Origin: a bacterium | GTDB lineage: Bacteria > Patescibacteriota > Dojkabacteria > SC72 > WJKH01 | NCBI GenBank assembly: GCA_029547225.1 | Contig: JAKPPS010000052.1 | Span: 1 to 63,219, forward strand | Length of the DNA stretch: 63,219 bases | Direction: 5' to 3' | Part shown: positions 6,017 to 39,681 of the stretch, in pieces | Position numbering within the stretch: position 1 is the first letter of the stretch | Layout: every line of letters starts with the position of its first letter | Notes under the pieces: generated by a model | What the model saw: only the letters and a program-made list of their open reading frames with translations | Told to the model about the DNA's origin: nothing | The model's database searches: none | Program-made: the position numbers and the translations under genes

Positions 6017-6070
6017 TTATGTAATTATATTTTTGCTTTCTCGTATAATAATTTATAGCAAACAAATGAT

Positions 6071-17076: not shown

Positions 17077-17541
17077 CTATTTTATTTCTAAGACTCTAAA
17101 TTTCTTAGTTATACCACCAAGATTCACTTCTACTTTATCTCCAACAAATCTTCCAAGCAAGGCCTTACCTACTGGAGATTCACACGAAATTTTCTTCTCT
17201 AAAGGCTCTGCTTCGACAGGATCGACAATTTCATATGTTTCTTCAAATCCTTCAAATCCAACTCGAACAAAAGAACCTATTTCTACACCAGGGAAATTGG
17301 GATCATCATGGATAATTTCATGGTTTTTTAAGATATCTTCAATTTCAGCTACTCTCTTTTCTAGATAAAACTTATCATCCGAGACCTCAGCAAAAGGATC
17401 ATCTAGCTCTTCGACCGTTTGTGTTTGCAATGACTTGAATCTCTCTGAGATGTCTTTACGACCTTCAGTAACAAGCTTGTGTAGCTCAGCTTGGAGTTCT
17501 TCCAATTTCTGGGCAGAAATCAGATACTTTGCCCTCGACAT
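17077..17541 (-). CDS. Gre-factor paralog (GreA/GreB family) with a non-canonical coiled-coil tip
   Basis: The C-terminal domain is GreA-like (VEIGSFVRV..YEIV..EAEP..KKISCESPVGKALLG..GDKVEV). The canonical GDLSENAEY tip is replaced by EELDDPFAEVSDDKFY. Confidence 0.8.
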   Translation of the reverse strand: MSRAKYLISAQKLEELQAELHKLVTEGRKDISERFKSLQTQTVEELDDPFAEVSDDKFYLEKRVAEIEDILKNHEIIHDDPNFPGVEIGSFVRVGFEGFEETYEIVDPVEAEPLEKKISCESPVGKALLGRFVGDKVEVNLGGITKKFRVLEIK

Positions 17542-18488: not shown

Positions 18489-18558
18489 TTTGAAGGGAAA
18501 GGATTATTTTAGAAACAGGACTATCCTCAGAATATACTTTTATTAAAATTTCTTTAAG

Positions 18559-18630
18559 TACCGCCACAGAGAATCGAACTCTGGTTACATGATTGAGAAT
18601 CATGAGTCCTAACCACTAGACGATGGCGGC
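18559..18630 (-). tRNA. tRNA-Glu (anticodon CUC), no encoded CCA
   Basis: Manual cloverleaf: acceptor GCCGCCA/TGGCGGT, D-arm GTCT-AGTGGTTA-GGAC, anticodon stem CATGA/TCATG with loop TTCTCAA, T-arm CAGAG-TTCGATT-CTCTG. Total 72 nt. Confidence 0.9.
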
Positions 18631-18820: not shown

Positions 18821-19285
18821 ATGATTATGTCACAAAATAATGATATTCAATTGCTAACCAAAGAAGGTTATGATGAGCTTAAAAAAGAATTAGAATACAG
18901 GATCAACGAAAAGCGCAAAGAGATAAGCGTCTTACTCGGCCAAGCAAAAGATATGGGTGATCTTTCTGAGAATGAGAGTTATACTGCTATGACAGAAGAA
19001 ATGCATAATAACGAGTATCGTATCTTAGAATTACAGGCAATACTTGATAATAGTAAAATTGTTGAAAATTGTAACAAAAACAAAGTTTGTGTCGGAGCGA
19101 AAGTTACCGTTTTAATCGATGGTAAATCAGAGAAAACATTAGAAATAGTTGGTGAAGATCAAGCTGACCCGTTCGAAGATAAAATTTCTTACCTTTCACC
19201 TATTGGCTCTGCTCTCATGAAAAAGAAGGTCGGCGACAAAGTCGAAATTGTCGGAACCACATACGAAATTAAAAAGATCGTATAA
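18821..19285 (+). CDS. greA: Transcription elongation factor GreA (canonical)
   Basis: LTKEGYDELKKELEY...MGDLSENESY tip motif and ISYLSPIGSALMKKKVGDKVEI C-terminal domain. Confidence 0.9.
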   Translation: MIMSQNNDIQLLTKEGYDELKKELEYRINEKRKEISVLLGQAKDMGDLSENESYTAMTEEMHNNEYRILELQAILDNSKIVENCNKNKVCVGAKVTVLIDGKSEKTLEIVGEDQADPFEDKISYLSPIGSALMKKKVGDKVEIVGTTYEIKKIV

Positions 19286-20098: not shown

Positions 20099-20866
20099 TT
20101 AAAGAATTATTACTATCGCCATAAGAGCAAATAATATTGGTGGCAAATACCCACTAAAATGCCTTTCCCCTGATAACCTGATATGCCAGAATGACAATAA
20201 CATATAAAAAACAAGTACAATTGCAAACGGATACACAAAGAAATTTAATACTCTCGCAAAATACGCTACCAAACCGACAATAAAAGCAAATATTAGCGCT
20301 ATAAATAATCCAGTAGTCGTATACTGTTGAGAAATACTTAATGCAGAGATTAATAGCAACAGGACAGCTAATCCAGTAATTAGCGAAATTGTCTGATATG
20401 TAAATAATCCGGAATACTGCATCCCGCTAACGATGCAAAATATAAACACAATATTTATTAGATCAAAGATCACTCTCGTATTCTTCTCAATAGAATACTG
20501 CTTGAGATAAGAGCTTTTAATGTTAGTAAAAAGTATAAAGAGACAAATCACACCTATTAATATTATAAACTGCTTATAAAAATCATTACTAACAAAGAAA
20601 AGATAGAGAGATACCGAAGAAAAAAAGATCGAAGGTATAAATATGTAACTTATCCACCTCTGCTTTATCTGCATTTTTATCATTGTTTCAGAATATTGAG
20701 ATATCTTTCTTGTAGAGTATTTCGACAATGTTGTGATACACCATACAAGGACTAATACTAGACCTAGCCCATACATATAAATATGGAAGGAATTATCAGA
20801 AAACGATGATATTTCCCACAGTACGAATATCATAATTGTATAAACAAGTTCCTTTCTAAATGACAT
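20099..20866 (-). CDS. Polytopic membrane protein, hypothetical
   Basis: About 7 hydrophobic helices. It overlaps the upstream CAP-domain gene by 11 nt, which suggests co-transcription. Confidence 0.55.
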   Translation of the reverse strand: MSFRKELVYTIMIFVLWEISSFSDNSFHIYMYGLGLVLVLVWCITTLSKYSTRKISQYSETMIKMQIKQRWISYIFIPSIFFSSVSLYLFFVSNDFYKQFIILIGVICLFILFTNIKSSYLKQYSIEKNTRVIFDLINIVFIFCIVSGMQYSGLFTYQTISLITGLAVLLLLISALSISQQYTTTGLFIALIFAFIVGLVAYFARVLNFFVYPFAIVLVFYMLLSFWHIRLSGERHFSGYLPPILFALMAIVIIL

Positions 20867-22247
20867 TTCCTGTAAATCCCCAAATTAAACCTGAAACCAA
20901 TAAAAACCACCAAACTCCGACAAAAAGTAATGAGTATGATCTCTGAGCTAGTTTACCCATTTTTGCATAGTACTTAATCTCAATAATCATTAATACCATA
21001 ACTAACAATGCTATTGCGAAACCTACGATATCCTTGAAAGAATATTTTGTAAGAAGATTATCTTGAATAAAATTTACTAAAGTATTCTGCTCTGCTGTAT
21101 TTTCAGCCTTTGCAACAGAACTTAATATATTCGTTATATCTTTTTCAATACTATTACCATAAGCATCAGTTGCAATTATGGTTGCTGTTTTAACGTTCTT
21201 AGGTATCGTCACTGAATACATACCAGTTTTATTAATATTCATAACATAGCTTTTGCTACCAGCGCTCAGCAATATTTCTGGAGATTGCTCCGCTGTAGCA
21301 ACACTTATTTCAATATTTTTACCAAGAACGCTTGCAACAATTGCATCATCTGAAATTTCAGGAGGAGTTGTATCGACAATAAAATCGACTTGATCAAAAA
21401 TATCTTTGTTATTATCGGATGTCGCTTTAACTGTATTATTTCCTTCTGTCCAATCTCGATTTCCTATGTATTGCCATTTTCCATCGTCTCCGATAGAAAC
21501 ATTACCCAATGGTGATTGATTATTTTCAAGCACTAAAGTGCCTGCCTGCCCATCAGCGCTACCTTCGATACGTAGTCGGCTCTCATTAATCACCTGATTA
21601 TCCAAAGGATATGAGATTTTTATACTCTTGATCTCTCCACTCTCTTTGATTTGTTGAATCTTTTGACCACTTACTGACATTGGAGCTTCAACCACTTCAG
21701 ATGTGATATTACCAAACATTTGTACTACTAAAATAACATCTTCACCCAACAAATTTCCATTAACTACTGCGATGCCGATATCTTGGTAATTTCCACTTAT
21801 GATATTCTCTCTATGTGTTGGGCTTGCCATCCATGCCTGATGCAATCCCTCTGCAGTCTGAAAGCCTTTTGCTAAATTTTCGCCGGCAAAAACATATTCA
21901 TATTGAGCATCATCAATAAACTGCCATGGAGTTTGTCCATCTGGTCCAAAATGATCCCAATATTGATTAGCTAACATATCGTTTGCTTTTGCATATGCCG
22001 CGGAAGTGAGTTTAGCATTAGCTTTAAGCTCATTTAAATCATAATTTCTACGCTCTGAATTAGTGTATTCGATAAGCTTATCTGCAGTTATTGAACTGGC
22101 ATAAGCCTTCTGCTGTAATCCAGGAACATATAAAGGTATGAAATTTGAGATTAGGATCAAAAATGTATAAAAAAGCAATGCCACCTTACGTAAAAGATAT
22201 GGTTGATATTTATTTTTTTCATGTGGTATAAAAAGCAGTTTGAGCAT
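20856..22247 (-). CDS. CAP/SCP (YkwD-like) domain protein with Ig-like region and C-terminal TM helices
   Basis: NSERRNYDLNELKANAKL..., GENLAKGF, HQAWMASPTHRENII and YQDIGIAVV are CAP-domain motifs. There is an N-terminal anchor and two C-terminal helices. Confidence 0.75.
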   Translation of the reverse strand: MLKLLFIPHEKNKYQPYLLRKVALLFYTFLILISNFIPLYVPGLQQKAYASSITADKLIEYTNSERRNYDLNELKANAKLTSAAYAKANDMLANQYWDHFGPDGQTPWQFIDDAQYEYVFAGENLAKGFQTAEGLHQAWMASPTHRENIISGNYQDIGIAVVNGNLLGEDVILVVQMFGNITSEVVEAPMSVSGQKIQQIKESGEIKSIKISYPLDNQVINESRLRIEGSADGQAGTLVLENNQSPLGNVSIGDDGKWQYIGNRDWTEGNNTVKATSDNNKDIFDQVDFIVDTTPPEISDDAIVASVLGKNIEISVATAEQSPEILLSAGSKSYVMNINKTGMYSVTIPKNVKTATIIATDAYGNSIEKDITNILSSVAKAENTAEQNTLVNFIQDNLLTKYSFKDIVGFAIALLVMVLMIIEIKYYAKMGKLAQRSYSLLFVGVWWFLLVSGLIWGFTGNVI

Positions 22248-25774: not shown

Positions 25775-26875
25775 TTAATTACCTTCTATGCTATTTTGCG
25801 CATTTTTTGTTATTAAATCATATATTTTATCCATGTAACCAAGAAATTCTTGAGCTGTTATGTCTTCATCCATAATTATGAGCCAATAGGAATACAATGC
25901 CGCCAATTGTTCATCAGGACTATCACTTCTCAACATATTAACTAAATAAGGGTCTGGCTTATTGTGTAGAAAATAGTGTACTAATCTGGGCAGAAATCCT
26001 CTTGGATCAACAGAAGAAAAATCACCATTCGCTTCGTCGAGATATCCCCTAAAATATCCATCGCTATTAATATATAATCTAATATTATGTAATCCTGATA
26101 AACTAGGATTTGTTACTTCTGGATCACTATCTTTAATCATTGCTATTATCTGTATGAGTACGGCGGGCAATTCTCGATAACCAGTGACTTCTATCGTATC
26201 CTCGCCATCAATACTTACTAGAACAGGTCTATAATATGTAGGGTTTCTAAAAAGATCTCGCAAATTTGTATCTTCAAGATGAAAAGTGATTCCCAATTTT
26301 GATCGACCTTGAGGACGAGGATTAGCAGATTGCTGTGCGATATGAGTTAATTCGTGTAAAGCGGTTTCTTTAGGTTCTTTTACCAATGCGGAATTAAAAT
26401 ATACTGTTCGGTCATCAGTTTCATTATAGACCCAAGCAATTTGATCAACAGAGGGTAAATATGACGTCACCGCTCGAATTTCACCAACTACTGGGAAACC
26501 ACATTCCATTAAACTTTCTTGAGCACGAATAACTGCCGCTGTAGCATCCGCATTAGTAATATGTGGCGGATTACTAACTCTTTGGACAACAGATAAAATA
26601 TTGGCAATAATTAAAATCGAACATAATAGTAATTCTCTACCTTTCGCAGAATGAAGAATATCATTAGAAGGAAATAATCTTTGAAAAAATCTCTTCACAC
26701 TTTCCAATGGAAGAATTTCATCATTTGGTGCAGCTTGAACATTTCCCTCGGTAGGATATTTTGGTTCATCAAATATCAAATTATTTTTTTGGGGGAACGT
26801 GCTCACACTAGAGTCTGGAGGAGTAAATTGTGATTTCCTAAGTAAAAATGCACTTTCCCAGATATGCGATTGCAT
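25775..26875 (-). CDS. Membrane-anchored hypothetical protein with HExxH (HELTH) zincin-like motif
   Basis: Hydrophobic segment ELLLCSILIIANILSVV near residue 90. KETALHELTHIAQQ motif. It lies 129 nt downstream of the giant-paralog array on the same strand. Confidence 0.55.
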   Translation of the reverse strand: MQSHIWESAFLLRKSQFTPPDSSVSTFPQKNNLIFDEPKYPTEGNVQAAPNDEILPLESVKRFFQRLFPSNDILHSAKGRELLLCSILIIANILSVVQRVSNPPHITNADATAAVIRAQESLMECGFPVVGEIRAVTSYLPSVDQIAWVYNETDDRTVYFNSALVKEPKETALHELTHIAQQSANPRPQGRSKLGITFHLEDTNLRDLFRNPTYYRPVLVSIDGEDTIEVTGYRELPAVLIQIIAMIKDSDPEVTNPSLSGLHNIRLYINSDGYFRGYLDEANGDFSSVDPRGFLPRLVHYFLHNKPDPYLVNMLRSDSPDEQLAALYSYWLIIMDEDITAQEFLGYMDKIYDLITKNAQNSIEGN

Positions 26876-27004
26876 ATTTAATTATATCATTTTTTAGAAC
26901 AATTTACTATGGGACACAGAATGAAGTTGTTAAGATTTTATTAACCTCACGACAAGAAACACATTATTGAGCTGCTAATTCGTAAGTATTAACTAATGAT
27001 ATTA

Positions 27005-30000
27005 TTACTTTACTCGAACAAAATACCCCGCATTTGGAAAAAGTTTATAGTCAAACCCGTAATCTGTGTCATCTATAGATAAATAATTTTTATACTGGCC
27101 ATTTTCCCATTTTGAAACTGTATCAATATCGGATGATAATATTTCATTATCATTGTTTATTAGTGTATCCGCTGTCATATCCTTAATTGGATTTGGTATA
27201 CCTATTAAGTTCCAGCCGATATTTAAGTCATAATTAGGATTTTCTGTAAAACGGTGTCCGTTTAGCCTGAAAGATATTTTACTTTCGGCTTTAACAAAAT
27301 AGGCCTCACCAGGTAATATTGAAAAGTTTTCTCCATAAGGAATATCGCCTCTACGTGATGAAATCATCCACTTACCATCTCGATAAGTAGAAATGTGCAT
27401 TATTGGTATATCCTGAGATTGAAAATATGTTAACAGTTGTTGTGAATCCTGAATTGTTCGACCATTTGCATCGCTTATGACCATAGGTATGGATATAAGA
27501 TTCCAACCTTTTAGCATATCATAATCCGTAAAATGAATTTGAGATTCTAACTCAACAGTAACCGTATCAAGTATTGGTTCATTTTCCTGTTTTATGCCGT
27601 CTTTATTTAGGTCATTAAATACTTTTACCTCTTGTCCCGGTGAATAGAATATATATTTTGAAGTAGTCTGATAACCCTCAACTGATGGAGTATACATTCC
27701 TTCGTACTGAGTGTCTTGCGCTTTTACTTTATTTATAAAAATGTTTTCTAATATGGATGAACCTTGAGAAGTTGTTACTCCAACTAAAACCTCATCTGTT
27801 CTACATTTCAAAGAATAAGTTGCATAATTTAATATTGCAGAAGGATATTTAGAACAAAAATCGTAGTTCTTCTCTAAAGCTAGGCTATAAGATTCACATG
27901 AAGCGTTTTTAAGTATTCCATCTGCAAGAGTCTGGCCAATATCGCTTTTAACATCTTCATAAACCTGAGTGCCACATTTTTCGTTTCCATTACTATCATA
28001 AAAAATATAACCTCCACCATTATTAGATCGAGCTTCAGCACCTACTTCTGTAGCTACCGTCCTACAAAAAGTATAATTAGAACCAGAAACAAATCCACAT
28101 CCAGCGAGATCTGATAATTTCCCTTCATTTAGTTTATCTAGGTACTCTTTATCGGATTTGAATAATTGGATATAGTGACCAACTTCATGTTCAAGAATAT
28201 CGTATTTTGCACAATTACTTATTGTGTTAATCCATGTTCCACACTGCAGGGTTGAGCCAGATGCGAGACAACCTGTATCGCCAGAAGTTAAAATTAGTCC
28301 GCCATAATTTACACAATTTTCACATTTAGCATCTGTATTGCTGTTACATCCACATTCTTTATTATAAATTTCCCGCCACATTTCTTCAGTATCGAGAGAA
28401 TTTACTTTATTTTTTTCTTTTTTCCATATTTCATCAGAGATATAGCTTGGCTTTCCAGAACATAGTCCATCGTTAATAACTTGTGAAGCTTGACAAGCTG
28501 AATTATATTGATCCAAAATGCACATTGAGGATTGACAAGTAAAACCATATACACAATTGTGAGTAGATCCTGTCCAAGTACAGCTTTCTCCGTCTAAAGC
28601 ATTATGCTCAACTCGATTTTCGAGATATGCTTCACCACAGGATAATTTGCCAAAATCTCCTCCAAGTAAGCCTTGTTCATTTTGACCTTCTTGATTGTGT
28701 TCATAAAAATTTTCACAATAATCGTCTCCAGATTCATTTTCAATACAAATCCCGCTCAAACACCTTTTTGGTATTTCACAATCATTCGGATCACCCTCTT
28801 TACATCTAGCTAATGAAGCACCTGTATCATCACAAAAATATTTTTTTGCCGGAATTTCATTAGTAATGGATGTCTTACTCTTGCAAACTCCTTTCGTATA
28901 ATCCCATGTGCATCCGAGATTTAATCCTTCACCTACTTGATTACATGCATCTATTGAGAGCAATAAATCACATCTATCACACCCACGGTTTCCAAGAGTC
29001 TTTTTTGCAGTATCATCAATATTGCATAGTTTATTACTTTTATCTACTTCTATAAATGGTCCACAAAAATACTGCCATTGGCAATTCTGTCTACCATCCT
29101 CGCACTCTTCTTCACACCCATTTTTCTTATCAAGATCATCACATTTATCGTTACCACATGTACAATCTTGAGCACAATTTTCACCTGTGTCACATTCTCC
29201 GTCTCCGCATTTGTTCTCAGCTGGCGGATTGATTGGAGCTGCACGCATAACACATCTACCACTCCTAACTTCACAGCCGATACTTGCAAATGCTTCACAA
29301 TCTTCGACTGGTATTTTCGAGCAAGCATCAGCAAAAACTTGATTAATTAACAGACTATTACTCGATTCGGAGAAGTCTTTCAATTGATCATTTTGAGTTT
29401 CAATAAATGATAATTTTTCTAAGACGATATTATCAACTGGTTTAATCTTTGTATTGGGCACCTCTATTGTTTTCTTTGCGTATGGTCCAATAGCCTCAAC
29501 TACTAAAGTCCAGTCTTTTTCAAAAGTCATTTCTTGACCAGTGACAGAATAAATTGTACCAATATCCATACTCCAACCAGTACCATTATCTGTCACAGAA
29601 GTAAGATTCTGTGAAACACCATCAGTAGGGTTTTTTACATATGCCCTTACTATTACATCATCATATGTCTCCCCATATTGATCAAATACATATCCATAAA
29701 TAGGATTAGGTGTTTTGATGGATTCACGAATAGGAAAAGTATTAATACTTCCGCCGAGACTTGTGGTAAAGATGCCTGTATTAAAACGATAATTGTATTC
29801 AGTTTCTGGATCTAAGCCATAGATTGTTACGTGATGAGAATAATATTTACCTTTATCTATCAATTCATATTTCCCTTGACTTATCTCTTCAATATCTCTT
29901 GTATCATAAAATTTCTTATTATTTTGGAGAAAAGATAATATGAAAAACTTATTATCTGTGCTAATTTCTATTTCGCCTGGATATTTTGTATATGTCGTCC

Positions 30001-30205
30001 ATGATAATGTCGCACTATTTGAAGTAATATTGGATATCGTAATATTATTTACTTCACCTTTATAATTTCGATCTGTAATCAAATACCAAACATATACCCC
30101 CGCTACAATAAGTACAATTACTGCTAAAACAATAGCTATTATTGTTAGAGTTCTTGATTTTTTCTTAACTGTCGGTTCATTTATTATCGCTTGATTCTCG
30201 AACAT
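27005..30205 (-). CDS. Giant cysteine-rich surface protein, paralog C (1066 aa) with HEVGH zincin motif
   Basis: N-terminal anchor (TIIAIVLAVIVLIVAGVYVWYL). FN3/PAP-N-like domain (ATLSWTT...HHVTIYGLDPETEYNYRF). Cys-rich core including CGDGECDTGENCAQDC. HEVGH at 28175-28189. C-terminal GWNL/PGEAYF tandem module. Confidence 0.85.
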   Translation of the reverse strand: MFENQAIINEPTVKKKSRTLTIIAIVLAVIVLIVAGVYVWYLITDRNYKGEVNNITISNITSNSATLSWTTYTKYPGEIEISTDNKFFILSFLQNNKKFYDTRDIEEISQGKYELIDKGKYYSHHVTIYGLDPETEYNYRFNTGIFTTSLGGSINTFPIRESIKTPNPIYGYVFDQYGETYDDVIVRAYVKNPTDGVSQNLTSVTDNGTGWSMDIGTIYSVTGQEMTFEKDWTLVVEAIGPYAKKTIEVPNTKIKPVDNIVLEKLSFIETQNDQLKDFSESSNSLLINQVFADACSKIPVEDCEAFASIGCEVRSGRCVMRAAPINPPAENKCGDGECDTGENCAQDCTCGNDKCDDLDKKNGCEEECEDGRQNCQWQYFCGPFIEVDKSNKLCNIDDTAKKTLGNRGCDRCDLLLSIDACNQVGEGLNLGCTWDYTKGVCKSKTSITNEIPAKKYFCDDTGASLARCKEGDPNDCEIPKRCLSGICIENESGDDYCENFYEHNQEGQNEQGLLGGDFGKLSCGEAYLENRVEHNALDGESCTWTGSTHNCVYGFTCQSSMCILDQYNSACQASQVINDGLCSGKPSYISDEIWKKEKNKVNSLDTEEMWREIYNKECGCNSNTDAKCENCVNYGGLILTSGDTGCLASGSTLQCGTWINTISNCAKYDILEHEVGHYIQLFKSDKEYLDKLNEGKLSDLAGCGFVSGSNYTFCRTVATEVGAEARSNNGGGYIFYDSNGNEKCGTQVYEDVKSDIGQTLADGILKNASCESYSLALEKNYDFCSKYPSAILNYATYSLKCRTDEVLVGVTTSQGSSILENIFINKVKAQDTQYEGMYTPSVEGYQTTSKYIFYSPGQEVKVFNDLNKDGIKQENEPILDTVTVELESQIHFTDYDMLKGWNLISIPMVISDANGRTIQDSQQLLTYFQSQDIPIMHISTYRDGKWMISSRRGDIPYGENFSILPGEAYFVKAESKISFRLNGHRFTENPNYDLNIGWNLIGIPNPIKDMTADTLINNDNEILSSDIDTVSKWENGQYKNYLSIDDTDYGFDYKLFPNAGYFVRVK

Positions 30206-30222
30206 ATTACTAATATGATAAA

Positions 30223-33200
30223 TTATTCAGGCAAAAACTCATCGCCTGTCACACTTAAGACTCTGACAAAATAACCATAGTTTGGATAAACATTATAATC
30301 ATAACTATACTCTTCTTCACCGGTTTTTACAATATTGATATACCTACCATTGTCCCATTTACTCAATGTATCAGATGTAAACCCAGAACTATTCAGTTGA
30401 TTTAAAATCTCAAATCCGGAATAATATTCTTTATTTGAATTATAAATACCAATTAAATTCCATCCAGGATTCAAAATTACTGGCAAAACTCCATCTACTT
30501 TTTTACCTACAAGCTCTATCAAAGCTTCTCTATGATTCAATATGAAATATGCTTCACCAGGAATAATACTAAAATCATCACCGAATGGGACGATCGATCC
30601 TTCTTCATCTTCACGCAAAGAATATGAATAAAATTTTCCATCTAAATACGTCGAAATTGACGTTATATCTGCATTTTGGAGATTTGCAAAATAGATCAGA
30701 TCAGATGCTTTCGATAATTTTGAGGAATTATCACCTTCAAAGACATACGGGAAATGCAACAAATTCCAACCAACTTTTAATTTATATTGTGCTACTGTAT
30801 TTTCCTTATATATTTTATATCCCATTGATTTGATTATTTTATTTGAAATATAATAATCATCACCATTCATAATCCCATTGTTATCAAGATCCTTATAAAA
30901 CACGATCGTATCATCTGGGCTCACGTACAAAGTTTTAACAATATTGTCATAACTCGTTATTGAAAAAACACCAGAATCTAATTCTTCTACTTCTTCATTA
31001 CTCGATGTATTCTTAATAAATAGTTTATCTAATTGATTATTAGATAACTCAAGGCTGGAAGTAGTGACTGGCTCTAAAGTAGGTTTTCTATCACAATTAA
31101 TAAACGGCCCACCCGGGAATGAATCAAAAAGCTCCTTTTGTTTCTCAACGGTACAGCTTTCCTTATCCACTCCAGCCATACCAAAATGAAGATGATATTC
31201 TGTTGATATAGATCCCGTATTTCCAGTAATAAGATTGGTACAATCACCTATATATGCATCATTTTCTTGACCTCCACAAGATAATGCATCTAAATGGCCA
31301 AGCTCAAATACCGTATTCATCTCCGATGTTACAAAAGCTGTACAACCTTCAGTTGTCCACTTTGTATAACAACCGTCTGGGAAGTAATCGTTAATGATAT
31401 CTTCTGAAAGTGGCACAGAAGTAACTGCGATATCTATTGCACAAGTAAAATCTTTGAATTGGTCTCTGTCGTCAGAATGGGACAAATAGGAATTTGAATT
31501 ATTTATTATTGCAGGTCCTTGGGAAACGGGAACATATTTATTTCCGATACCAACACATAATCCAGTTTGAGTACTGCTATTAAACGGAAGTTCGTTAATA
31601 CTAATGCAAGTGTTCGTATATCCGTTTTTATTATCTGGAAGATAGAAAGTCGTACACCTTCCATTTGTACCATCAAAACTACATTCTTCAAGAGAATATT
31701 CCGAGCATTCCTTTTCTTCTACAATCTTACTATTACAACGATATGACGAGTCAGATACCCTAGTCCATTCACAAAGAAGAGAATATTTATCACATATTTC
31801 TTTATACTTTATTGATGAGCATACTGGTTTTTCTACTGTTTCGTATTCATTTGGGAGAGGAAGGTCGTCTTTTGCAGAAATACATTTTTCATAATTTGTA
31901 TCCCATTTGCATCTCTCATCGAGCGAACATCTTGTTAAATCAAATTTATTGCATTCTGAAATTGCATTAATACATCTTCCATATGGGTTACTAACACCTT
32001 CGTTGGTTGGTGGAATGTATATGCAGCGATTACTTGTTTTGCATATTGCTTCTGGGAAGAGCTCACAGTTTTCAAGACTTGCTGGAATATCACGACAAGA
32101 TTCAATACCATTTTCATCAGTTGCCCACTCACAATCTGAATTATTTTTTCCACACTCTAACTGTGAAAAGGAACTACAACTTTGATAATTAGAAATGTTC
32201 ACACCAAATCCCTTTGCAAAAACTTCATGTGTACATACTGAGTTCCATACACAATCACCTCTTTTACAATCATCTTCGTTTAGATAAACACCACACTGCT
32301 CAACCGGTAATGCCAAAATTGGGTTATTACTTCTAACACAAGAATCATCCTTTGACAGATCTTTACTTTCTCTACAAACATATCCGTTTGCACATTCTTT
32401 TATTGTGCCACTAATGACATTAGATAATTTATTATCTTGCGTACATTTTAGTCTTTTTTGAGATACACCTTCCTCATCACCCTGATCATTGATTACATTT
32501 TTATCAGCACACCAATTATCACAATCTAAATTTCCATGTGAGTCAAAATTTAAATCACTATTTTTTACACACGATTTTATATTATTACACTTACATTGAG
32601 TTTCGTTTTCTTTACATTTGTTATTATTAAATGTACCCGTAACTGAAATTCCAGTATTTGTTTTACACTTACTCGAAGTCTTATCGCATATTTGATTACT
32701 CGAACATTGGCCACAAGTACCACCACAACCATCAGAGCCACATTCTTTATTATCACAAGAAGGTTTACAGGTGATAGAGTTATCTTCCTTACCTGCAGTA
32801 GTTTTATCTACATCTGATATTTGTGCAGAAAATACCTTAGGAAGCAAATTTAAAATTTCTTGCTGTTGGTCGCTATTATTATTAAGAATCATTTGCTCAG
32901 TTGGTTGTATATCTTCTATCGGTGAATACGATGTTGATGAATAAGATGAGTTTATCGCATTAACAGTTAATTCAGAATTACCATATATTGGATATTTTGA
33001 AGTGCCATCTGATAATCTAATGTTTGCAAGATCAATCGACCAACCTCTTTTACCATCTAAAGGATAACTATATATCTGTGAAACCACATCTTGATCGTCT
33101 GAAATAGTAAATATAACTAGGGAATCTTCAGATAATTGACCGAATTCGTCCGTAACAATACCATATGCTGGTTGCGGAGTTGAGATTTCCTCAAGCGTAG

Positions 33201-33672
33201 AAAAAGTCTCGAAAGACAAATCAGAATATGAAGGTAAAACTAGGAAGCCAGAGAAAATACTAAAATGATAGTCTTTGCTTGGAGAGAGATTATCTATCGT
33301 AATACTATGTGTATAGCGAGGAAGTTTTTTGTATGAATAGCTATCTTTATCAATCTCGATTTTGTCTCTGTCATCATATATTCTTGCATTCTGGTTAAAC
33401 GATAAAAATGTCTTCTGAGAAGAATCATTTACTATTAAGCTTCCTGTACTTTTATACGTAGTTGTCCAAGTAATTGTAGCGCTTGTATCAGTAATATTTG
33501 TAACCATTAAGTTGTTTACTGATCTAGAAACAATAATATTCCAAATTAAATTACTAAGAAGAAATAAAATTACTATTGTCAATAACCCAATCAATAATTT
33601 ATTGAGTATACTAGAATTGTTCTGATCTGTTATTTTTGTTGACTTATTAAATTTTGTTTCTGAAGGATTCAT
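30223..33672 (-). CDS. Giant cysteine-rich surface protein, paralog B (1149 aa) with M23/LytM-like signature
   Basis: Same N- and C-terminal modules as the other two paralogs. Contains CGSDGCGGTCGQC, about six 4-Cys repeats, and AIDIA...LGHL...GNTGSISTEYHLHF (31174-31452). It lies 17 nt upstream of paralog C. Confidence 0.85.
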   Translation of the reverse strand: MNPSETKFNKSTKITDQNNSSILNKLLIGLLTIVILFLLSNLIWNIIVSRSVNNLMVTNITDTSATITWTTTYKSTGSLIVNDSSQKTFLSFNQNARIYDDRDKIEIDKDSYSYKKLPRYTHSITIDNLSPSKDYHFSIFSGFLVLPSYSDLSFETFSTLEEISTPQPAYGIVTDEFGQLSEDSLVIFTISDDQDVVSQIYSYPLDGKRGWSIDLANIRLSDGTSKYPIYGNSELTVNAINSSYSSTSYSPIEDIQPTEQMILNNNSDQQQEILNLLPKVFSAQISDVDKTTAGKEDNSITCKPSCDNKECGSDGCGGTCGQCSSNQICDKTSSKCKTNTGISVTGTFNNNKCKENETQCKCNNIKSCVKNSDLNFDSHGNLDCDNWCADKNVINDQGDEEGVSQKRLKCTQDNKLSNVISGTIKECANGYVCRESKDLSKDDSCVRSNNPILALPVEQCGVYLNEDDCKRGDCVWNSVCTHEVFAKGFGVNISNYQSCSSFSQLECGKNNSDCEWATDENGIESCRDIPASLENCELFPEAICKTSNRCIYIPPTNEGVSNPYGRCINAISECNKFDLTRCSLDERCKWDTNYEKCISAKDDLPLPNEYETVEKPVCSSIKYKEICDKYSLLCEWTRVSDSSYRCNSKIVEEKECSEYSLEECSFDGTNGRCTTFYLPDNKNGYTNTCISINELPFNSSTQTGLCVGIGNKYVPVSQGPAIINNSNSYLSHSDDRDQFKDFTCAIDIAVTSVPLSEDIINDYFPDGCYTKWTTEGCTAFVTSEMNTVFELGHLDALSCGGQENDAYIGDCTNLITGNTGSISTEYHLHFGMAGVDKESCTVEKQKELFDSFPGGPFINCDRKPTLEPVTTSSLELSNNQLDKLFIKNTSSNEEVEELDSGVFSITSYDNIVKTLYVSPDDTIVFYKDLDNNGIMNGDDYYISNKIIKSMGYKIYKENTVAQYKLKVGWNLLHFPYVFEGDNSSKLSKASDLIYFANLQNADITSISTYLDGKFYSYSLREDEEGSIVPFGDDFSIIPGEAYFILNHREALIELVGKKVDGVLPVILNPGWNLIGIYNSNKEYYSGFEILNQLNSSGFTSDTLSKWDNGRYINIVKTGEEEYSYDYNVYPNYGYFVRVLSVTGDEFLPE

Positions 33673-33730
33673 ATAAAGTAAGAAATATTAATGTACTATA
33701 AATACTATTGTAAATTTATTCTTTAGTCAA

Positions 33731-33757
33731 CAAAACGGGCGACATTATTCGCCCGTT
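33731..33757 (-). terminator. Rho-independent terminator between paralog A and paralog B
   Basis: The stem aacgggcg/cgcccgtt (33734-33757) reads on the minus strand as CGGGCG-loop-CGCCCG followed by TTTTGTTG. Confidence 0.7.
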
Positions 33758-33795
33758 AAGTAAACTAAATATGAATACGTTTACCAATAAGTATT

Positions 33796-36700
33796 CTATT
33801 CAGGGATATAGCTGCCACCTGTTTCACTTAATACCTTAACAAAGTAACCGGCTGTTGGGAAAACCTTATAATCATAGCCATATTCCATGTTATCAGAATA
33901 TACTACTGAATTGTACTTACTATTTTCCCATTTACTTAAGGTATCAGCGACTACTCCCTGACCTTCCATCTGCTTGAGAACATCGAAGGCTTGATAGTTA
34001 TCTACATCTTGTTTGTAGATATTGACTAAATTCCAACCTGGAAGAAGTTGTAGTGGCAAGGCATTTTCATATGCATAACCAACCATAGAAGCTGTTCCAC
34101 TATTTCTACTCTTTACAAAATATGCTTCACCCGGAAGAATAATGAAATTATTACCAACTTCAACATCCTCTCCATTAATATCTTCCTTCATTGAGTATGA
34201 TTCAAACTTGCCTTCACGGTATGTCGCTATCTCTTCAACTAAAATTTCTCTCGCTCTTAGATATTCGTAAATGTCATTTGCAGTTGAAGACTTTTCTTGA
34301 TCAAGAACAAATGGGAAGGATACTAAATTCCAACCTTTACTAAAATCATAGTTTTTTGCTGATTCCACCATCACATAACCAACACCAAGATTTTCGACTT
34401 CATAAGGAGTAAGGATTCTTTCGCCCTCATCTCTGACATTATTTTTGTTCGCATCGTCAAAATAAGCAATATGCGTTTCATTACTTAAGACTAATTTCTC
34501 ATTTGCATTCCCTGTTGATGTATAAATACCAGGTTTTAAGACAGGATCAGAGATTACATTTTCTTGTGCTTTTACATCATTTTTAAAGATATTTAATAAG
34601 GAATTAGTCTCTGTTTCTCCTTCAACTCCAACTTCTAATGTACTCATACCACATGGAAAAGCCCCTGATGGAATATAATCTGTAATGCTTGCGCAGGGTT
34701 TCCAATCTCTTTGTTCATATGTTGGATAGAAAATAGAAACTACTTCATCCTGAATATTTAATTGATTATCATTACAGACAGTCATGGTTGTACAGTCTTC
34801 ACTTTGATAATCAAGATTTGTCAACTTATAAATTTGATCTGAAAAAACTAAATCATTATTCTTACTGCTTATTGAAACTGAAGCTGAGCATTTATTATTC
34901 TCCCAATCGTATTCAGCAGAGCAACCAACTTCGTAGCCGTACAAATCATCCTCTGAGTAATTAGGAAATATTGAGTTAATAGACAGGCCATCTTCCGGAA
35001 GTTCAATTTCAACGTTACAATAACCTTCCTCAGTATTTGAAAGATCACTTATTGGTTTTTCATCTCCACCAACAAATACGCAGTATTCTATTCCTTCTTC
35101 GTTTGAATCTCCAACTTTGAAGCTTATTCCGGATTCACAATTCCCTTCACCTGCTTCAATAACACCATTATTATTACTATCAAGTTCAACCCATGCACAT
35201 GACATGCTTTCTGCTCCATATACATAATGCTCATTGCATTCTTTTTTTCCATATTGAGTTAATGATTCACAACCCTCAACATAAGGCGAAAACGGAAGTG
35301 TACAAACTCCTTCACCCGAAGCAAAAGCTGTCCAATCATAACCATACTTCAAGCATTTTTGCTCATCAAAAATCTGATCAGGTTTTATGGCATTTTGTTC
35401 AATAAAAGACGAATCTACACAACCTGTAGAATTAGAATCGACAAAATAGCTATTTTGAGAATGCGTATCACTTGCAACTACTGTAATTGTCTGATTTTGT
35501 TCATTATTATCTATCCAAGCGCAGCCTGCTTCTAGACAACGACCTACGAGAGGAAATTCCGAATCAAAATCATTAATAGCCTCACAATTGACCTGGCCAT
35601 TAATCATGTAAGTAGCACATTCATCATCTTCGTTGTCATCATTTACCACACAATCACAATCCTCATAGAGAACCTGTTGGTTTAATTGGTTATTTCTATA
35701 CAATGCACCTGTTGCTCGATCACACACATACTGTTTCGAACTTTCTTGACAAAACCCCTCATCCTCTCCTGGTCGCACAAAAAATTCACATTTCAAATCA
35801 TCAAGCATGTTTTCGCAACCTTCTTCTGAATTAAAATCCATACATTCATCTATTCCATCATATATACACTCATTATTCGAACAATACATCCCATTTGTAC
35901 ATTCCGCTAAGTCTGTAAAGCAAGCTCTTCCCACTTCTTCTTTTACACAGGCACCCTCGCCATCGTCAATGTCTCCATCTGCGACATCTACTTTACTCAT
36001 TGGCTCACAATATTCATTAGATTTACAATCAGTATTTTTGGTACAAGAAGTATAATTCTCGACTTCATAGTAATCTCCCTCAGAAGTTTGGTACATACAC
36101 TTTCCATTTAAGCAGAATTGATTTTGTCCGCATTCCTCGTTTTTACTACATGCAAATACAGTAGGAAAGCCCTTAACACATTTATTTTTTATACAATCAT
36201 ATTGACTATCTCTACAATCATCTGCATTATTACAATAATCAAATTTTTGACATGTTGGAGGGCGATTTCCGACTCTAATACATTTTAGATTTTGATCACA
36301 TGAATCATCTTCATCTAATTCACATCTATCTCCGACTCGTGCAGGTCGTTCTGTTTCTGGTTGACTTTGATTTTGTTGACTAGTTGAACCTGATACAGAA
36401 TTTTGAGAAGGAGTCGGCTGAGTATCTGTAGCAGGCTTGGGTTTTAAAAATGATCCAGAAACGGAGCCACCAGATCTAGGTGAATCTCCTCCTCCATCAA
36501 TTACTGGATCTTGTTCAAACGGATTAGCAGCAAACAATCGGTTTACAAGAAGTTTATTCGACTCTTTAACGATCTCCTCTGCGTCATCTGATTTAATTAT
36601 TAAATCAGGGCATGGTGCGATATTCTCTGCATTAAATTGAATCGATTTCTCTTTTCCATCTACAATAGCTGAAAGCTCTGCTATAACTTCATTATCAAAT

Positions 36701-37392
36701 ACAAACAATTCGTCAGAATCTTGTATGCGTATATTTGCAATATCAATCGTCCATGTATTGTTATTACTTGCCAAAGCAGATAAAATTTGTGATTTTTGAT
36801 CTGCACGATTAACAAATGATATCGTAACAATAGGATTATCGTTAACCTCATTTGCCACAGATATTGCGCCAAAAGTAGGTTTTGGTGTAGTCATTGTTTC
36901 GAGTTCTGAATATGTTTTGAACTTTTGACTGAATTTATCGATTGGAAGCACAAAATCTGATATTGCTATCGAATACTCTTTTGAAGATTCCAGCCCGCTT
37001 ACTACGACATAGTGATTATAGTATTTACCCTGATCAACTTTCACAAACTGATTTGGGGATATCTCCTGATAATCGCGAAAGTCAAAGTACTTGTAACCAG
37101 TAATAAAATCAAAAAGTTTATTTTCGTTTTTGTCAGTAAGATAGACTATTGAGCTTGTAGGTTTTGTTGTAGTCCACGATATTGCGGCAGATTCTGAGGT
37201 TATTGAGGTGATTTGAAAATTTGAAATATCCTTTGCGTTATTCTGATTAATTAAATATATTGCTATGCCACCGATTATAGCAATAAAAAGAACTAGCAAA
37301 ATGTAAAACCACCATTTTGAAAGAATCAATTTCTTTGATGTGCTCGCAACATTTTGTGTTGCAACATCAGCAGTTTGATCTTGAGTGACCAT
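33796..37392 (-). CDS. Giant cysteine-rich surface protein, paralog A (1198 aa), no catalytic motif seen
   Basis: N-terminal anchor (WWFYILLVLFIAIIGGIAIYL). FN3-like domain (AAISWTT...HYVVVSGLESSKEYSIAI). Ser/Gly/Pro/Gln linker. EGF- or knottin-like Cys repeats. C-terminal GWNL/PGEAYF tandem module ending LSETGGSYIPE. Confidence 0.85.
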   Translation of the reverse strand: MVTQDQTADVATQNVASTSKKLILSKWWFYILLVLFIAIIGGIAIYLINQNNAKDISNFQITSITSESAAISWTTTKPTSSIVYLTDKNENKLFDFITGYKYFDFRDYQEISPNQFVKVDQGKYYNHYVVVSGLESSKEYSIAISDFVLPIDKFSQKFKTYSELETMTTPKPTFGAISVANEVNDNPIVTISFVNRADQKSQILSALASNNNTWTIDIANIRIQDSDELFVFDNEVIAELSAIVDGKEKSIQFNAENIAPCPDLIIKSDDAEEIVKESNKLLVNRLFAANPFEQDPVIDGGGDSPRSGGSVSGSFLKPKPATDTQPTPSQNSVSGSTSQQNQSQPETERPARVGDRCELDEDDSCDQNLKCIRVGNRPPTCQKFDYCNNADDCRDSQYDCIKNKCVKGFPTVFACSKNEECGQNQFCLNGKCMYQTSEGDYYEVENYTSCTKNTDCKSNEYCEPMSKVDVADGDIDDGEGACVKEEVGRACFTDLAECTNGMYCSNNECIYDGIDECMDFNSEEGCENMLDDLKCEFFVRPGEDEGFCQESSKQYVCDRATGALYRNNQLNQQVLYEDCDCVVNDDNEDDECATYMINGQVNCEAINDFDSEFPLVGRCLEAGCAWIDNNEQNQTITVVASDTHSQNSYFVDSNSTGCVDSSFIEQNAIKPDQIFDEQKCLKYGYDWTAFASGEGVCTLPFSPYVEGCESLTQYGKKECNEHYVYGAESMSCAWVELDSNNNGVIEAGEGNCESGISFKVGDSNEEGIEYCVFVGGDEKPISDLSNTEEGYCNVEIELPEDGLSINSIFPNYSEDDLYGYEVGCSAEYDWENNKCSASVSISSKNNDLVFSDQIYKLTNLDYQSEDCTTMTVCNDNQLNIQDEVVSIFYPTYEQRDWKPCASITDYIPSGAFPCGMSTLEVGVEGETETNSLLNIFKNDVKAQENVISDPVLKPGIYTSTGNANEKLVLSNETHIAYFDDANKNNVRDEGERILTPYEVENLGVGYVMVESAKNYDFSKGWNLVSFPFVLDQEKSSTANDIYEYLRAREILVEEIATYREGKFESYSMKEDINGEDVEVGNNFIILPGEAYFVKSRNSGTASMVGYAYENALPLQLLPGWNLVNIYKQDVDNYQAFDVLKQMEGQGVVADTLSKWENSKYNSVVYSDNMEYGYDYKVFPTAGYFVKVLSETGGSYIPE

Positions 37393-37695: not shown

Positions 37696-39681
37696 ATGAA
37701 AAAAGTAAAAACGGCAATCGTATATTATAAATATTATTCTCATGGAAATATCTGCACAGTAGAAATATCGACAGCAATATGCCGTGGTTTTCCAAGTACC
37801 AAAATTATTGGCATGAAGCCTAAACAAGCTCGAGTAATAATTGAAAAAATAAATATTGCTTTAAAATCTGCAGGATATAAATTGCCTCAAGAAAAAACCA
37901 GAATTTATCTAAAGTATTACAAAGGAAACAATTCAGATCAGTTAATACCCTCTAATCTTTCTCTTGAATTACCAATCGCAATCAGTATTTTGCTTTGTTC
38001 AAATCAGATATATTTTGTCTCCGAGTCTAAAGTTATCAACGATAACATTACCGACTCAATTCCAAAAGTTGACTTAAATAATAATAGTTTAGCTACAAAT
38101 AGTTATTCAGTTTTCGCTGGAGGCGATCTAAGTTTTGATAGTTCAATCTCAGGTTATACAGAAATACTGCCCTACATAAAGTTCTTTGATAAAAAAAGAA
38201 GAATCGTTCTAACGAGAAGTAGAAAACCCGAGATAACAAAATCAACTCATAATATTTTTGTGGTATTACCTGACAAGTGCAGGGAATTAGTTCTATATTT
38301 ACAAAATCAAGGATACGAAATCAAAAACAATAGTAATTTGCGATTTATTTTTATTGATTCGCTTACTAATCTGCAGCAATCAATTAATCTTTTCCTCAAT
38401 AAAGAAGTAGCTAATAGAGATCCACTTTTTCACTCTAATACACTGTTAGTAGATGAAAACAAATCTGTTCAAAAAATTTCCTACAATATTGATAAAAAAT
38501 TTAATCCTTGCAAGAGTGAGAAAACCGTATTAAAGAAAACCTTATCAAACACAGAAACGAAAAGTAAATCAGAATCTCGATTGCAGCTACCTACAAAAAT
38601 TACTATTCCGACTGACAAGATTTCATATTTAAGCAAGCCACAGAATAATTATATTTCAAAAGAAAATTTAACAACACTAAATTACTTAGTAGGACAAGAG
38701 AGTGCAAAAAGAGCATGTATTATTTCTGCAGGCGGTGGGCATCATATACTCTTTATCGGTCCTATCGGATCAAGTAAAACATTATTAGCCCACTCTATTT
38801 CAGAAATCACCCCATCGTTATCATTGTATGAAATTCTTGATATGGCAAGGTACCATAGAGTTAAAATCGAAGAGATAGAACAATACTTGCAAAAGATAGA
38901 TACTGCAAATAAAAATCTCCGGAATGTTCGAATATTCGAATTAAGCAGACCAATTATAGAAATAATGCATAACACTACAATACCAGGTCTTCTCGGTAAT
39001 AAGAATAATCCTGGTTTACTTGCAAAATCAGATAAGGGTTTTTTGTTACTAGATGAGATATCAGAGATAAGTAGCTCAGTATTAAACTCATTAAAATCAT
39101 CTTTAGACTATAGACAGATAAAAGTCGGAGCAAACGAGATTATACCTACACGATATACACTTATTGCAACTTCTAACACTTGTCCTTGCGGTAAAGATGC
39201 AAAGGATTGCAAATGTAGGCTTGGAGAGAAAATAAATTACATAAAAAAGATACCGGAATCACTGATTAATCGGATTGATTTACTTTCTCGAGTAAGTGTT
39301 ACCGATTTTAGTTCAGTATCTTCAGCGCAGAATAGTTTATCTGGTCATATAAATAATGTAAAAGATTCAATCGATTATAGAAATATCGTAAAGAAAGTTC
39401 GAGAAATCCAAAATCGTCGATATATTAATGAGAATTTCCGTACTAATGCAGAGATAACACTAGACAAAATCAATACTTATTGTGAGTGTACATCATCAGC
39501 TACAAAAATCTTACATACCTCAATTGAGAAATTGGGATTAAATGGCCGAGATTATATAAAAATACTAAAGATAGCACGAACAATCGCCGACTTAGAGTCC
39601 AAAGAAATAATAACTGAAGAAAACATATACGAAGCCCTGTCGTACAGAACTACCTCTTTGAGAACTGAGGTTTCTTTCTAG
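37696..39681 (+). CDS. comM: YifB/ComM-family Mg-chelatase-like AAA+ ATPase with a large insertion
   Basis: GQESAKRACIISAGGGHHILFIGPIGSSKT (Walker A), GFLLLDEISE (Walker B), NTCPCGKDAKDCKC zinc motif and LINRIDLL. At 661 aa it is longer than the roughly 500 aa I recall as usual for this family. Confidence 0.85.
   Translation: MKKVKTAIVYYKYYSHGNICTVEISTAICRGFPSTKIIGMKPKQARVIIEKINIALKSAGYKLPQEKTRIYLKYYKGNNSDQLIPSNLSLELPIAISILLCSNQIYFVSESKVINDNITDSIPKVDLNNNSLATNSYSVFAGGDLSFDSSISGYTEILPYIKFFDKKRRIVLTRSRKPEITKSTHNIFVVLPDKCRELVLYLQNQGYEIKNNSNLRFIFIDSLTNLQQSINLFLNKEVANRDPLFHSNTLLVDENKSVQKISYNIDKKFNPCKSEKTVLKKTLSNTETKSKSESRLQLPTKITIPTDKISYLSKPQNNYISKENLTTLNYLVGQESAKRACIISAGGGHHILFIGPIGSSKTLLAHSISEITPSLSLYEILDMARYHRVKIEEIEQYLQKIDTANKNLRNVRIFELSRPIIEIMHNTTIPGLLGNKNNPGLLAKSDKGFLLLDEISEISSSVLNSLKSSLDYRQIKVGANEIIPTRYTLIATSNTCPCGKDAKDCKCRLGEKINYIKKIPESLINRIDLLSRVSVTDFSSVSSAQNSLSGHINNVKDSIDYRNIVKKVREIQNRRYINENFRTNAEITLDKINTYCECTSSATKILHTSIEKLGLNGRDYIKILKIARTIADLESKEIITEENIYEALSYRTTSLRTEVSF

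Follow-up and report, generated by a model that had tools for sequence, protein, structure and literature searches.

Giant cysteine-rich proteins with conserved ends and variable cores encoded in tandem by a Dojkabacteria genome

Introduction

Bacteria belonging to the candidate phyla radiation (CPR; Patescibacteria) make up a large share of bacterial diversity, and what is known of the way in which they recognize, attach to, and feed on partner cells comes mainly from type IV pili in a few cultured Saccharibacteria. Dojkabacteria-type organisms have, to our knowledge, no cultured member. The closest described proteins from the CPR are the large Cys-rich extracellular proteins of Peribacteria, which vary between strains and have been proposed to function in attachment (PMC4736985), and the giant surface proteins reported in Vampirococcus (PMC8080830). 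Here we analyze three consecutive genes for giant Cys-rich proteins (W1, W2, and W3), together with the gene downstream of them (W4), on contig JAKPPS010000052.1 of a Dojkabacteria assembly (GenBank GCA_029547225.1); the whole 63,219-nucleotide stretch is referred to as the window. The giants resemble the Peribacteria and Vampirococcus proteins in CPR lineage, large size, exported or membrane-bound location, a Cys content of ~7%, strain variability, and a proposed role in attachment, and are set apart from them by the available descriptions, which concern composition and size and report no shared domain plan, no C-terminal "GWNL" module (defined below), and no embedded hydrolases.

Three other kinds of system offer likenesses. 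Modular hydrolases of Gram-positive bacteria (LytM/lysostaphin-type M23 enzymes with SH3b; Listeria Ami/InlB with GW modules) also combine an extracellular wall hydrolase with repeated non-catalytic modules, and the family to which W1-W3 belong shares M23, Amidase_2, VanY, and SH3_3 domains with them, with M23 residues present in W2. The family differs from these hydrolases in its N-terminal membrane anchor and constant N-terminal module of FN3 and immunoglobulin (Ig)-like domains, in a Cys-rich core that holds an enzyme in only a minority of members, and in a C-terminal tandem module that is not SH3b, GW, LysM, or SLH. Ca2+-stabilized giant adhesins (MpIBP/MpAFP RII, SiiE, SdrD B-repeats) have similar Ig-like extenders and D-x-N-x-N-G-x-x-D-x-x-E loops, but the family has one or two such domains instead of long arrays, its matches fall below family cut-offs, and the giants lack RTX/type I secretion system or LPxTG export signals. 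Polymorphic toxin systems (CdiA, Rhs, LXG) likewise join a constant scaffold to exchangeable effector segments in multi-copy arrays, whereas the present family has its variable segment inside the protein and its strongest conservation at the C-terminus, with neither adjacent immunity genes nor a known secretion-targeting domain. Among modular envelope-active proteins anchored at the surface, the family is a new, uncharacterized variant that brings a new domain.

Results and Discussion

Conserved ends of the tandem giants

The three giants are encoded in tandem on the minus strand, with exactly the coordinates and lengths given in a preliminary description of the window (Table 1), and are separated by gaps of 123 nt (W1-W2), 17 nt (W2-W3), and 129 nt (W3-W4), none of which contains a small open reading frame (ORF). 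An identical W3 protein is present on 11 contigs from independent samples (NCBI GCA_035424305.1, ENA, Logan), in every case followed downstream by W4 and RNase Y, which shows that the genes are real and no assembly artefact. The public gene call for W2 (P0002, 1094 aa) begins at Met56 and loses the membrane anchor, which is restored, as in W1 and W3, when the first 55 codons (33508-33672) are added from an upstream ATG at 33672. A scan for promoters and terminators gave counts no higher than in shuffled sequence.

W1-W3 can be aligned (MAFFT, BLASTP) only over the first ~290 and last ~270 residues, where they are homologous (BLASTP E 1e-20 to 1e-37) at 27-36% pairwise identity, and their middles are unalignable. 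No DNA-level repeats were found between the paralogs beyond the conserved motifs, so that the genes are old duplicates without recent gene conversion or cassette borders. The plan proposed in the preliminary description (anchor, FN3 domain, second sandwich, Cys-rich core, loop, and C-terminal tandem repeat) is common to all three, and the division into conserved ends and a variable middle extends to the more than 1000 related protein clusters described below.

Each giant has one strongly hydrophobic segment, located within residues ~15-52 and preceded by three or four Lys/Arg (in W1, K20, K21, and K26 precede the single transmembrane (TM) segment). This combination is the predicted signature of an N-in (type-II) signal-anchor, which would leave the bulk of the protein extracytoplasmic. 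W1, W2, and W3 contain 47, 50, and 46 Cys, respectively, all but one inside the core, where Cys makes up 7.2-8.8% of residues. The ortholog of W1 (P0001, on the syntenic contig L001) is 56% identical overall, with 70% identity in the FN3 domain, 60% in the Ig-like domain, 39-53% in the core, and 73-86% in the C-terminal module, and it keeps all 47 Cys. The conservation of every Cys in a core of such low identity argues strongly, though indirectly, for structural disulfides and an extracytoplasmic location, and together with the single TM segment and the confinement of Cys to the core it agrees with the N-terminally anchored topology proposed earlier. The S9, L13, L17, RpoA, and S4 proteins of the same contig are 87-96% identical to those of the window.

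Behind the anchor, at ~55-145 in all three giants, lies an FN3-type domain (Pfam Pur_ac_phosph_N/fn3), whose PF16656 scores are above the 30-bit cut-off in W2 (33.9) and W3 (32.9) and below it in W1 (24.1); Pfam recognizes such a domain in 109 of 133 family representatives. The TP.P.YG motif ascribed to the second beta-sandwich is present in all three giants. A profile of this second domain, built from 17 family sequences, gave as its best match 4p99, the Ig-like MpAFP RII extender domains of a Ca2+-stabilized adhesin (summed E 6e-7, with individual repeats weak), which fits a beta-sandwich spacer. On a related contig (L002), a 443-aa protein encoded at 6005-7336, directly upstream of two tandem giants, contains the same "DDR[DE]...THHVT" variant of the FN3 domain and an LPxTG-like C-terminal sorting signal (LPQTG followed by a TM segment); this FN3 variant is therefore paired with a different anchor too.

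An undescribed C-terminal domain

The C-terminal ~180 residues consist of an internal duplication of a ~90-aa unit with the pattern GWNL...helix...[ST]x[YW]xxGx[FY]...PGxxYF[VI][KR]. Alignment of repeat 1 with repeat 2 (hhalign 99.4%, E 9e-22) establishes that the tandem module noted previously is a true duplication. The AlphaFold2 (AF2) model of the last 268 residues of W1, built from a 42-sequence alignment (mean predicted local distance difference test score (pLDDT) 91.4, predicted template modeling score (pTM) 0.85), has two parts, a beta-sandwich that bears the EF-hand-like loop and, behind it, a pair of repeats of the type beta-alpha-beta(4-5). Foldseek searches with this model found no match at E<=1e-3 in the PDB (350,542 chains) or BFVD (TM-scores <= ~0.3), and searches of the module against Pfam (E<=10), PHROGs, and PDB profiles were empty save for weak SdrD_B matches on the Ca2+-loop. 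There was no sequence or fold match to SH3b, GW/SH3_8, LysM, SLH, or CWB repeats. Since a confident model is without structural or sequence match, the GWNL tandem module is an undescribed domain.

The SdrD_B matches (PF17210), which lie on the EF-hand-like loop in W3 (E 0.0099, on DLNKDG) and in L002, score 13.5-17.3 bits against a cut-off of 29.7 bits and cover profile positions 7-37 only; the apparent likeness to SdrD B is at the level of the loop and misses the family cut-off. The D-x-N-x-D-G motif proposed for this loop is exact in W3 and departs from that pattern in W2 (DLDNNG) and W1 (DANKNN), and the segment L.NIF.N.VKAQ, also described as conserved, occurs in W1 and W3 and is lacking in W2.

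A short motif of the form phi-phi-x-x-V-x-A-[Q/S/E], where phi is a hydrophobic residue, was found on both sides of the variable core, at ~281-290 and 932-943 in W1, 276-284 in W2, and 285-294 and 818-830 in W3. At the N-junction it occurs in 36 of 72 windows across the family and at the C-junction in 40 of 72, whereas its frequency in the remainder of these proteins predicts 15% and 11%, an enrichment of 3-5 fold. These junction motifs may represent processing sites with a signal-peptidase-like -3/-1 pattern, or paired strands. Either reading would change the picture of the C-terminal module as the distal tip of a stalk that was drawn at first, with which a hairpin arrangement, suggested by the matching motifs, would compete.

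Size and distribution of the family

A word-indexed homolog search returned only 1, 5, and 1 matches, and an exhaustive search of representatives was required. Searched in this way against 1.84 billion representative proteins clustered at 50% identity, the C-terminal profile (alignment A2) matched 1182 clusters with a limit of E<=1e-3; the count falls to 745 with E<=1e-10 and to 238 with E<=1e-30. Among the best 150 of the 1182 clusters, the module is located at the very C-terminus with one exception, in proteins of ~600-1700 aa. A TM segment lies within the first 80 residues in 111 of 135 representatives, the "DDRD" motif of the FN3 domain is present in 101 and the strict TPxPxYG motif in 72, and the number of Cys per representative ranges from 0 to 101 (median 31). 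Where public names are given, they read "hypothetical protein [Candidatus Dojkabacteria bacterium]". As anticipated in the preliminary description, no characterized family was matched in Pfam, NCBIfam, PDB sequences, or Foldseek beyond the FN3-type domain and DUF7107, and neither the domain plan nor the C-terminal domain was found described in the literature.

Loci were also sought in one genome per GTDB species by means of two degenerate-codon DNA patterns, the matches being validated with hidden Markov models (HMMs). The first pattern produced many chance matches in unrelated phyla, which were filtered by HMM; the second was specific, and the family alignment (A6) was too divergent for pattern-based locus finding. 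After validation, 101 loci with a full module remained, labeled mostly as Dojkabacteria/WS6, "uncultured Candidatus Saccharibacteria", Patescibacteria group, or unclassified, with one locus each in Blackburnbacteria and Daviesbacteria. The validated genome matches are thus almost all from the CPR, to which the family is almost entirely confined. Four to five copies or more are present in several metagenome-assembled genomes (MAGs), and the genes often stand in tandem as pairs or triplets (L002/L124, L003, L020, L105, L111, L138, L148). The triad is not a fixed system: tandem arrays in relatives range from one copy to three or more, and different genes adjoin them.

The GWNL module was additionally observed on three contigs with labels outside the CPR: as a two-repeat module in a 331-aa protein of a Thermoplasmatales-labeled contig (L036), as a tandem module inside an 1183-aa protein of a Gemmatimonadota-labeled contig (L054), and as the whole of a 222-aa secreted protein on a Pseudomonadales-labeled contig (L038). 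Wider mobility of the domain is one possible reason, mis-binning of these contigs another.

Variable cores and embedded hydrolase-like domains

The core of W1 contains a DUF7107 Cys-knot-like module (386-433, Pfam E 1.2e-5) and no recognizable enzyme, and no homolog of this core other than that of the ortholog was found among 140 relatives. One family member (P0006) has a core with a W3-like first half (E 1e-62) and a W2-like second half (E 6e-31), and such comparisons show the cores to be exchangeable units that are shuffled between members. Pfam domains found in the 133 representatives include Peptidase_M23 (6 representatives, best 3e-20), SH3_3 (8, 3e-20), Amidase_2 (2, 1e-14), VanY (2, 1e-9), a Hint (intein-like autoprocessing) domain (1), and a right-handed beta-helix/NosD domain in the core of a single representative (2.5e-43). 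The presence of M23, Amidase_2, and VanY substantiates the view that the family carries peptidoglycan hydrolase domains. Domains with a located position fall inside the core (e.g., M23 at 413-505 of the 778 residues of P0084), and the cores of the L003 giants contain a Peptidase_C39_2-like segment (E 8.5e-4 across the whole profile). A separate 728-aa protein of the window (7553-9739, plus strand) has Big_5 and Peptidase_C39_2 (2e-18) domains, the latter of the C39-like type found in these L003 cores.

An M23/LytM-like domain had been proposed for W2, which contains an M23-like signature (GNTGSISTEYHLHFG) ending at residue 831. The isolated region had no match to Pfam PF01551 even at E<=10, and its M23 homology is recognized only through a profile-profile link. 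An alignment of residues 704-864 with two close relatives (A4) gave as its best match among PDB profiles the M23 peptidase 5kqb (E 0.13), on the segment Y.HL...GxTGxxTGxHLHF. Eight M23-signature regions of the family, two of which pass the PF01551 threshold (P0084 with 72.7 bits and P0071 with 37.4 bits), could be aligned with invariant H, D, H, and HxH positions, and hhalign linked A4 to this eight-region alignment (95.7%, E 8.6e-9). H732, D747, H793, H827, and H829 of W2 fall on the invariant columns, so that all five catalytic/zinc residues are present. The canonical M23 spacing is HxxxD; in W2 the H-to-D spacing is expanded to 15 residues and contains Cys, as in other divergent members. 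A PHROG of phage metallo-endopeptidases also matches W2 (E 0.0018). Together these data bear out the proposed assignment, and W2 704-864 is a predicted divergent M23/LytM-type domain for which catalysis would be expected.

The zincin proposed for W3 fared less well. Four homologs, at 25-31% identity, keep its HExxHxxQ, E.GAE, and GGGxY motifs unchanged, as they do HExxH and the downstream Glu (E720/E724), and the region matches a PHROG of unknown function (E 0.003). Pfam and PDB profile searches of the region found no match, Foldseek found none in the PDB, and the AF2 model has a low mean pLDDT (62). Because none of these sources gives an assignment, the W3 zincin is a possibility at the level of motifs only.

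Table 1. Coordinates of the giant genes, their parts, and the downstream gene in the window; residue numbers are in parentheses.
Feature	Position	Strand	Basis or remark
W1, 1198-aa paralog	33796..37392	(-)	ORF; predicted signal-anchor ~27-50 (37243-37314)
W1 FN3-like domain, purple-acid-phosphatase N-terminal type (55-165)	36898..37230	(-)	PF16656 E 5e-5
W1 second beta-sandwich (166-285), begins TPKPTFG	36538..36897	(-)	profile match 4p99
W1 variable Cys-rich core (291-930; 46 Cys, 7.2%)	34603..36522	(-)	Cys count, alignment
W1 junction motif LLNIFKNDVKAQ and beta-sandwich with EF-hand-like loop DANKNNVRDEGE (931-1014)	34351..34602	(-)	AF2, strands 10-87
W1 tandem GWNL module (1015-1198), two homologous alpha/beta repeats of ~90 aa	33799..34350	(-)	AF2, hhalign
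W2, 1149-aa paralog	30223..33672	(-)	ORF; predicted signal-anchor ~26-48 (33529-33597)
W2 predicted divergent M23/LytM-like metallopeptidase domain (704-864)	31081..31563	(-)	hhalign; H732, D747, H793, H827, H829
W2 C-terminal constant module (879-1149)	30226..31038	(-)	alignments A2, A7
W3, 1066-aa paralog	27005..30205	(-)	ORF; predicted signal-anchor ~20-43 (30077-30148)
W3 putative HExxH metalloprotease-like region (607-787)	27845..28387	(-)	HEVGH 673-677, Q680, EVGAE 720-724, GGGY
W3 C-terminal constant module (817-1066)	27008..27757	(-)	alignments A2, A7
W4, 366-aa HELTH ORF, downstream of the triad	25775..26875	(-)	

Genomic neighborhood

No conserved partner genes were found around the relatives, whose neighbors differ. 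W4, previously taken for a membrane HExxH partner of the giants, has one TM segment (79-101) and a HELTHIAQQ motif that resembles the metallopeptidase motif of DUF4157/eCIS_core, which it matches in Pfam at E 0.04 only. The only database relative of W4 is an identical copy, and no W4 was found beside other family members in the neighborhoods of relatives. As an orphan without conserved linkage to the family, it was rejected as part of the system. No DsbA/VKOR-type gene was seen among the ~26 window ORFs scanned.

Other genes of the window include a YifB/Mg-chelatase-like AAA ATPase (37696-39681, plus strand), which is divergently oriented from W1, has ~200 extra residues between its N-domain and AAA core, and shares only 48% identity with its ortholog on L001, compared with 87-96% for flanking ribosomal genes. 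A further gene (20856-22247, minus strand) encodes another probable surface protein, of 463 aa, in which a CAP/YkwD domain is combined with Ig-like domains and a TM segment at the C-terminus. Two GreA-family paralogs (17077-17541, minus strand; 18821-19285, plus strand) flank trmD and the only tRNA of the window, a tRNA-Glu(CTC) at 18558-18630. RpoA of the window had best matches of 36-45% identity only, scattered among unrelated phyla as an artefact of the exact-word search; the class of the window was accordingly derived from the occurrence of the family and from the presence of W3 on NCBI assembly GCA_035424305.1.

Interpretation and alternatives

The explanation that we favor, tentatively and at somewhat less than an even chance, is that the giants are a scaffold on the cell surface from which adhesive and envelope-active payloads are presented to another cell, either a host or a neighbor, whose wall would thereby be bound and locally opened. 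Insertion by the type-II signal-anchor would leave the N-terminus in the cytoplasm and the remainder outside the membrane, with the FN3 domain and Ig-like sandwich serving as a spacer and the disulfide-bonded core as an exchangeable payload that differs from copy to copy. The Ca2+-loop sandwich and tandem GWNL module would be the constant part and would presumably bind a constant ligand, for which an envelope polymer and the protein's own N-terminal module are the candidates. The W2 payload would be a zinc M23-type peptidoglycan endopeptidase, that of W3 possibly a HExxH metalloprotease, and that of W1 maybe a binding module. Because the copies are many and diverged, the cores are shuffled, and divergence is fast in a lineage related to epibionts, a housekeeping role is unlikely and the envelope of another cell is favored as the target. 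A published account (PMC12206443) describes every cultivated member of this phylum as an episymbiont. The adhesin-plus-lysin proteins aimed at a host envelope that were envisaged in the preliminary description are in this way retained with respect to surface topology, variable core, and the M23 domain of W2, reduced to a motif-level possibility for the W3 zincin, and given up with respect to W4 and the fixed triad.

Several observations weigh against this scaffold. The data do not separate a foreign wall from the cell's own wall as the target, and we know of no host for Dojkabacteria. Only ~8% of members contain a recognizable peptidoglycan hydrolase (M23, Amidase_2, or VanY), and the majority of cores, that of W1 included, have no recognizable enzyme. 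Within the triad, evidence for an enzyme is lacking in W1 and limited to motifs in W3, and divergent M23 domains can be non-catalytic, though W2 retains the five key residues. For the GWNL module, which lacks any sequence or structural relative with a known function, a role in binding is a guess, and the occurrence of the module on archaeal-labeled and other non-CPR contigs argues against a strictly peptidoglycan-specific ligand unless these contigs are mis-binned. Additionally, the "Saccharibacteria" labels stem from third-party co-assembly MAGs, and the class label is maybe an artefact of phylum-level mapping.

The same parts could serve the cell itself, as membrane-tethered autolysins or scaffolds that cut and shape its peptidoglycan or its S-layer while it grows, divides, or inserts pili, with the C-terminal module bound to its own wall. 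M23, Amidase_2, VanY, and SH3b are classic autolysin parts, an N-terminal anchor retains an enzyme at the cell's own envelope, and VanW, PspC, and LiaF-like wall/envelope-stress genes are present in the window. We nevertheless regard self-directed remodeling as unlikely, given that the copies are numerous and highly diverged with shuffled cores, that W1 diverges from its ortholog far faster than the neighboring genes do, that most cores contain no hydrolase, that a Cys-rich core of 500-650 aa is unusual for housekeeping autolysins, and that related genomes already own FtsEX with M23, encoded by separate genes on related contigs. Doubtful to a similar degree is the view that the giants are mainly adhesins or a surface coat, the cores being variable binding surfaces (for attachment, or for antigenic or phage-receptor variation) and the enzyme-like domains degenerate binders. 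Here the retention of H732, D747, H793, H827, and H829 in W2 and the full-scoring M23, Amidase_2, and VanY domains of several relatives are difficult to accommodate, the latter being a sign that at least some of the family is truly catalytic, even though the absence of an enzyme from W1 and most other cores would be expected of adhesins, the FN3, Ig-like, and Ca2+-loop domains are similar to the extenders of giant adhesins, and comparable proteins are known from other lineages: another CPR lineage has large extracellular proteins, rich in Cys and variable between strains, for which a function as attachment factors has been proposed (PMC4736985), and giant surface proteins are reported in Vampirococcus (PMC8080830).

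Contact-dependent antagonism, in which the giants would be polymorphic toxins against competing bacteria and the variable core the toxin, appears very improbable. The combination of constant and variable parts, the shuffling of cores, the multi-copy arrays, and a Hint autoprocessing domain in one member, as in some polymorphic toxins, all fit such a system, but the variable part is central instead of C-terminal, the gaps between and after the giants (123, 17, and 129 nt) hold no small immunity-like ORFs, the triad has no known trafficking domain in Pfam or NCBIfam, and DNA-level cassette repeats are absent. A bolder version of the host-directed scaffold, which we consider quite unlikely, holds that the constant N- and C-terminal modules together form a membrane-proximal base, and that the family is a CPR-specific cassette system for the display or release of interchangeable disulfide-rich effectors (wall hydrolases, proteases, binders) onto hosts, with GWNL as a new fold that recognizes the host envelope. 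In such a base the junction motifs may be paired strands or type-I-signal-peptidase-like cleavage sites.

Conclusions

The family supplies concrete and abundant candidate contact proteins for Dojkabacteria-type organisms. With a scaffold that can be recognized by its ends, a confidently modeled new domain, and payloads that include predicted wall-cutting enzymes, it is directly testable, and the conserved ends provide a handle for annotating more than 1000 clusters of "hypothetical" proteins. Should the constant modules prove to form a membrane-proximal base that displays or releases effectors onto hosts, the family would be an apparatus for host interaction in episymbiotic bacteria that was previously unknown.

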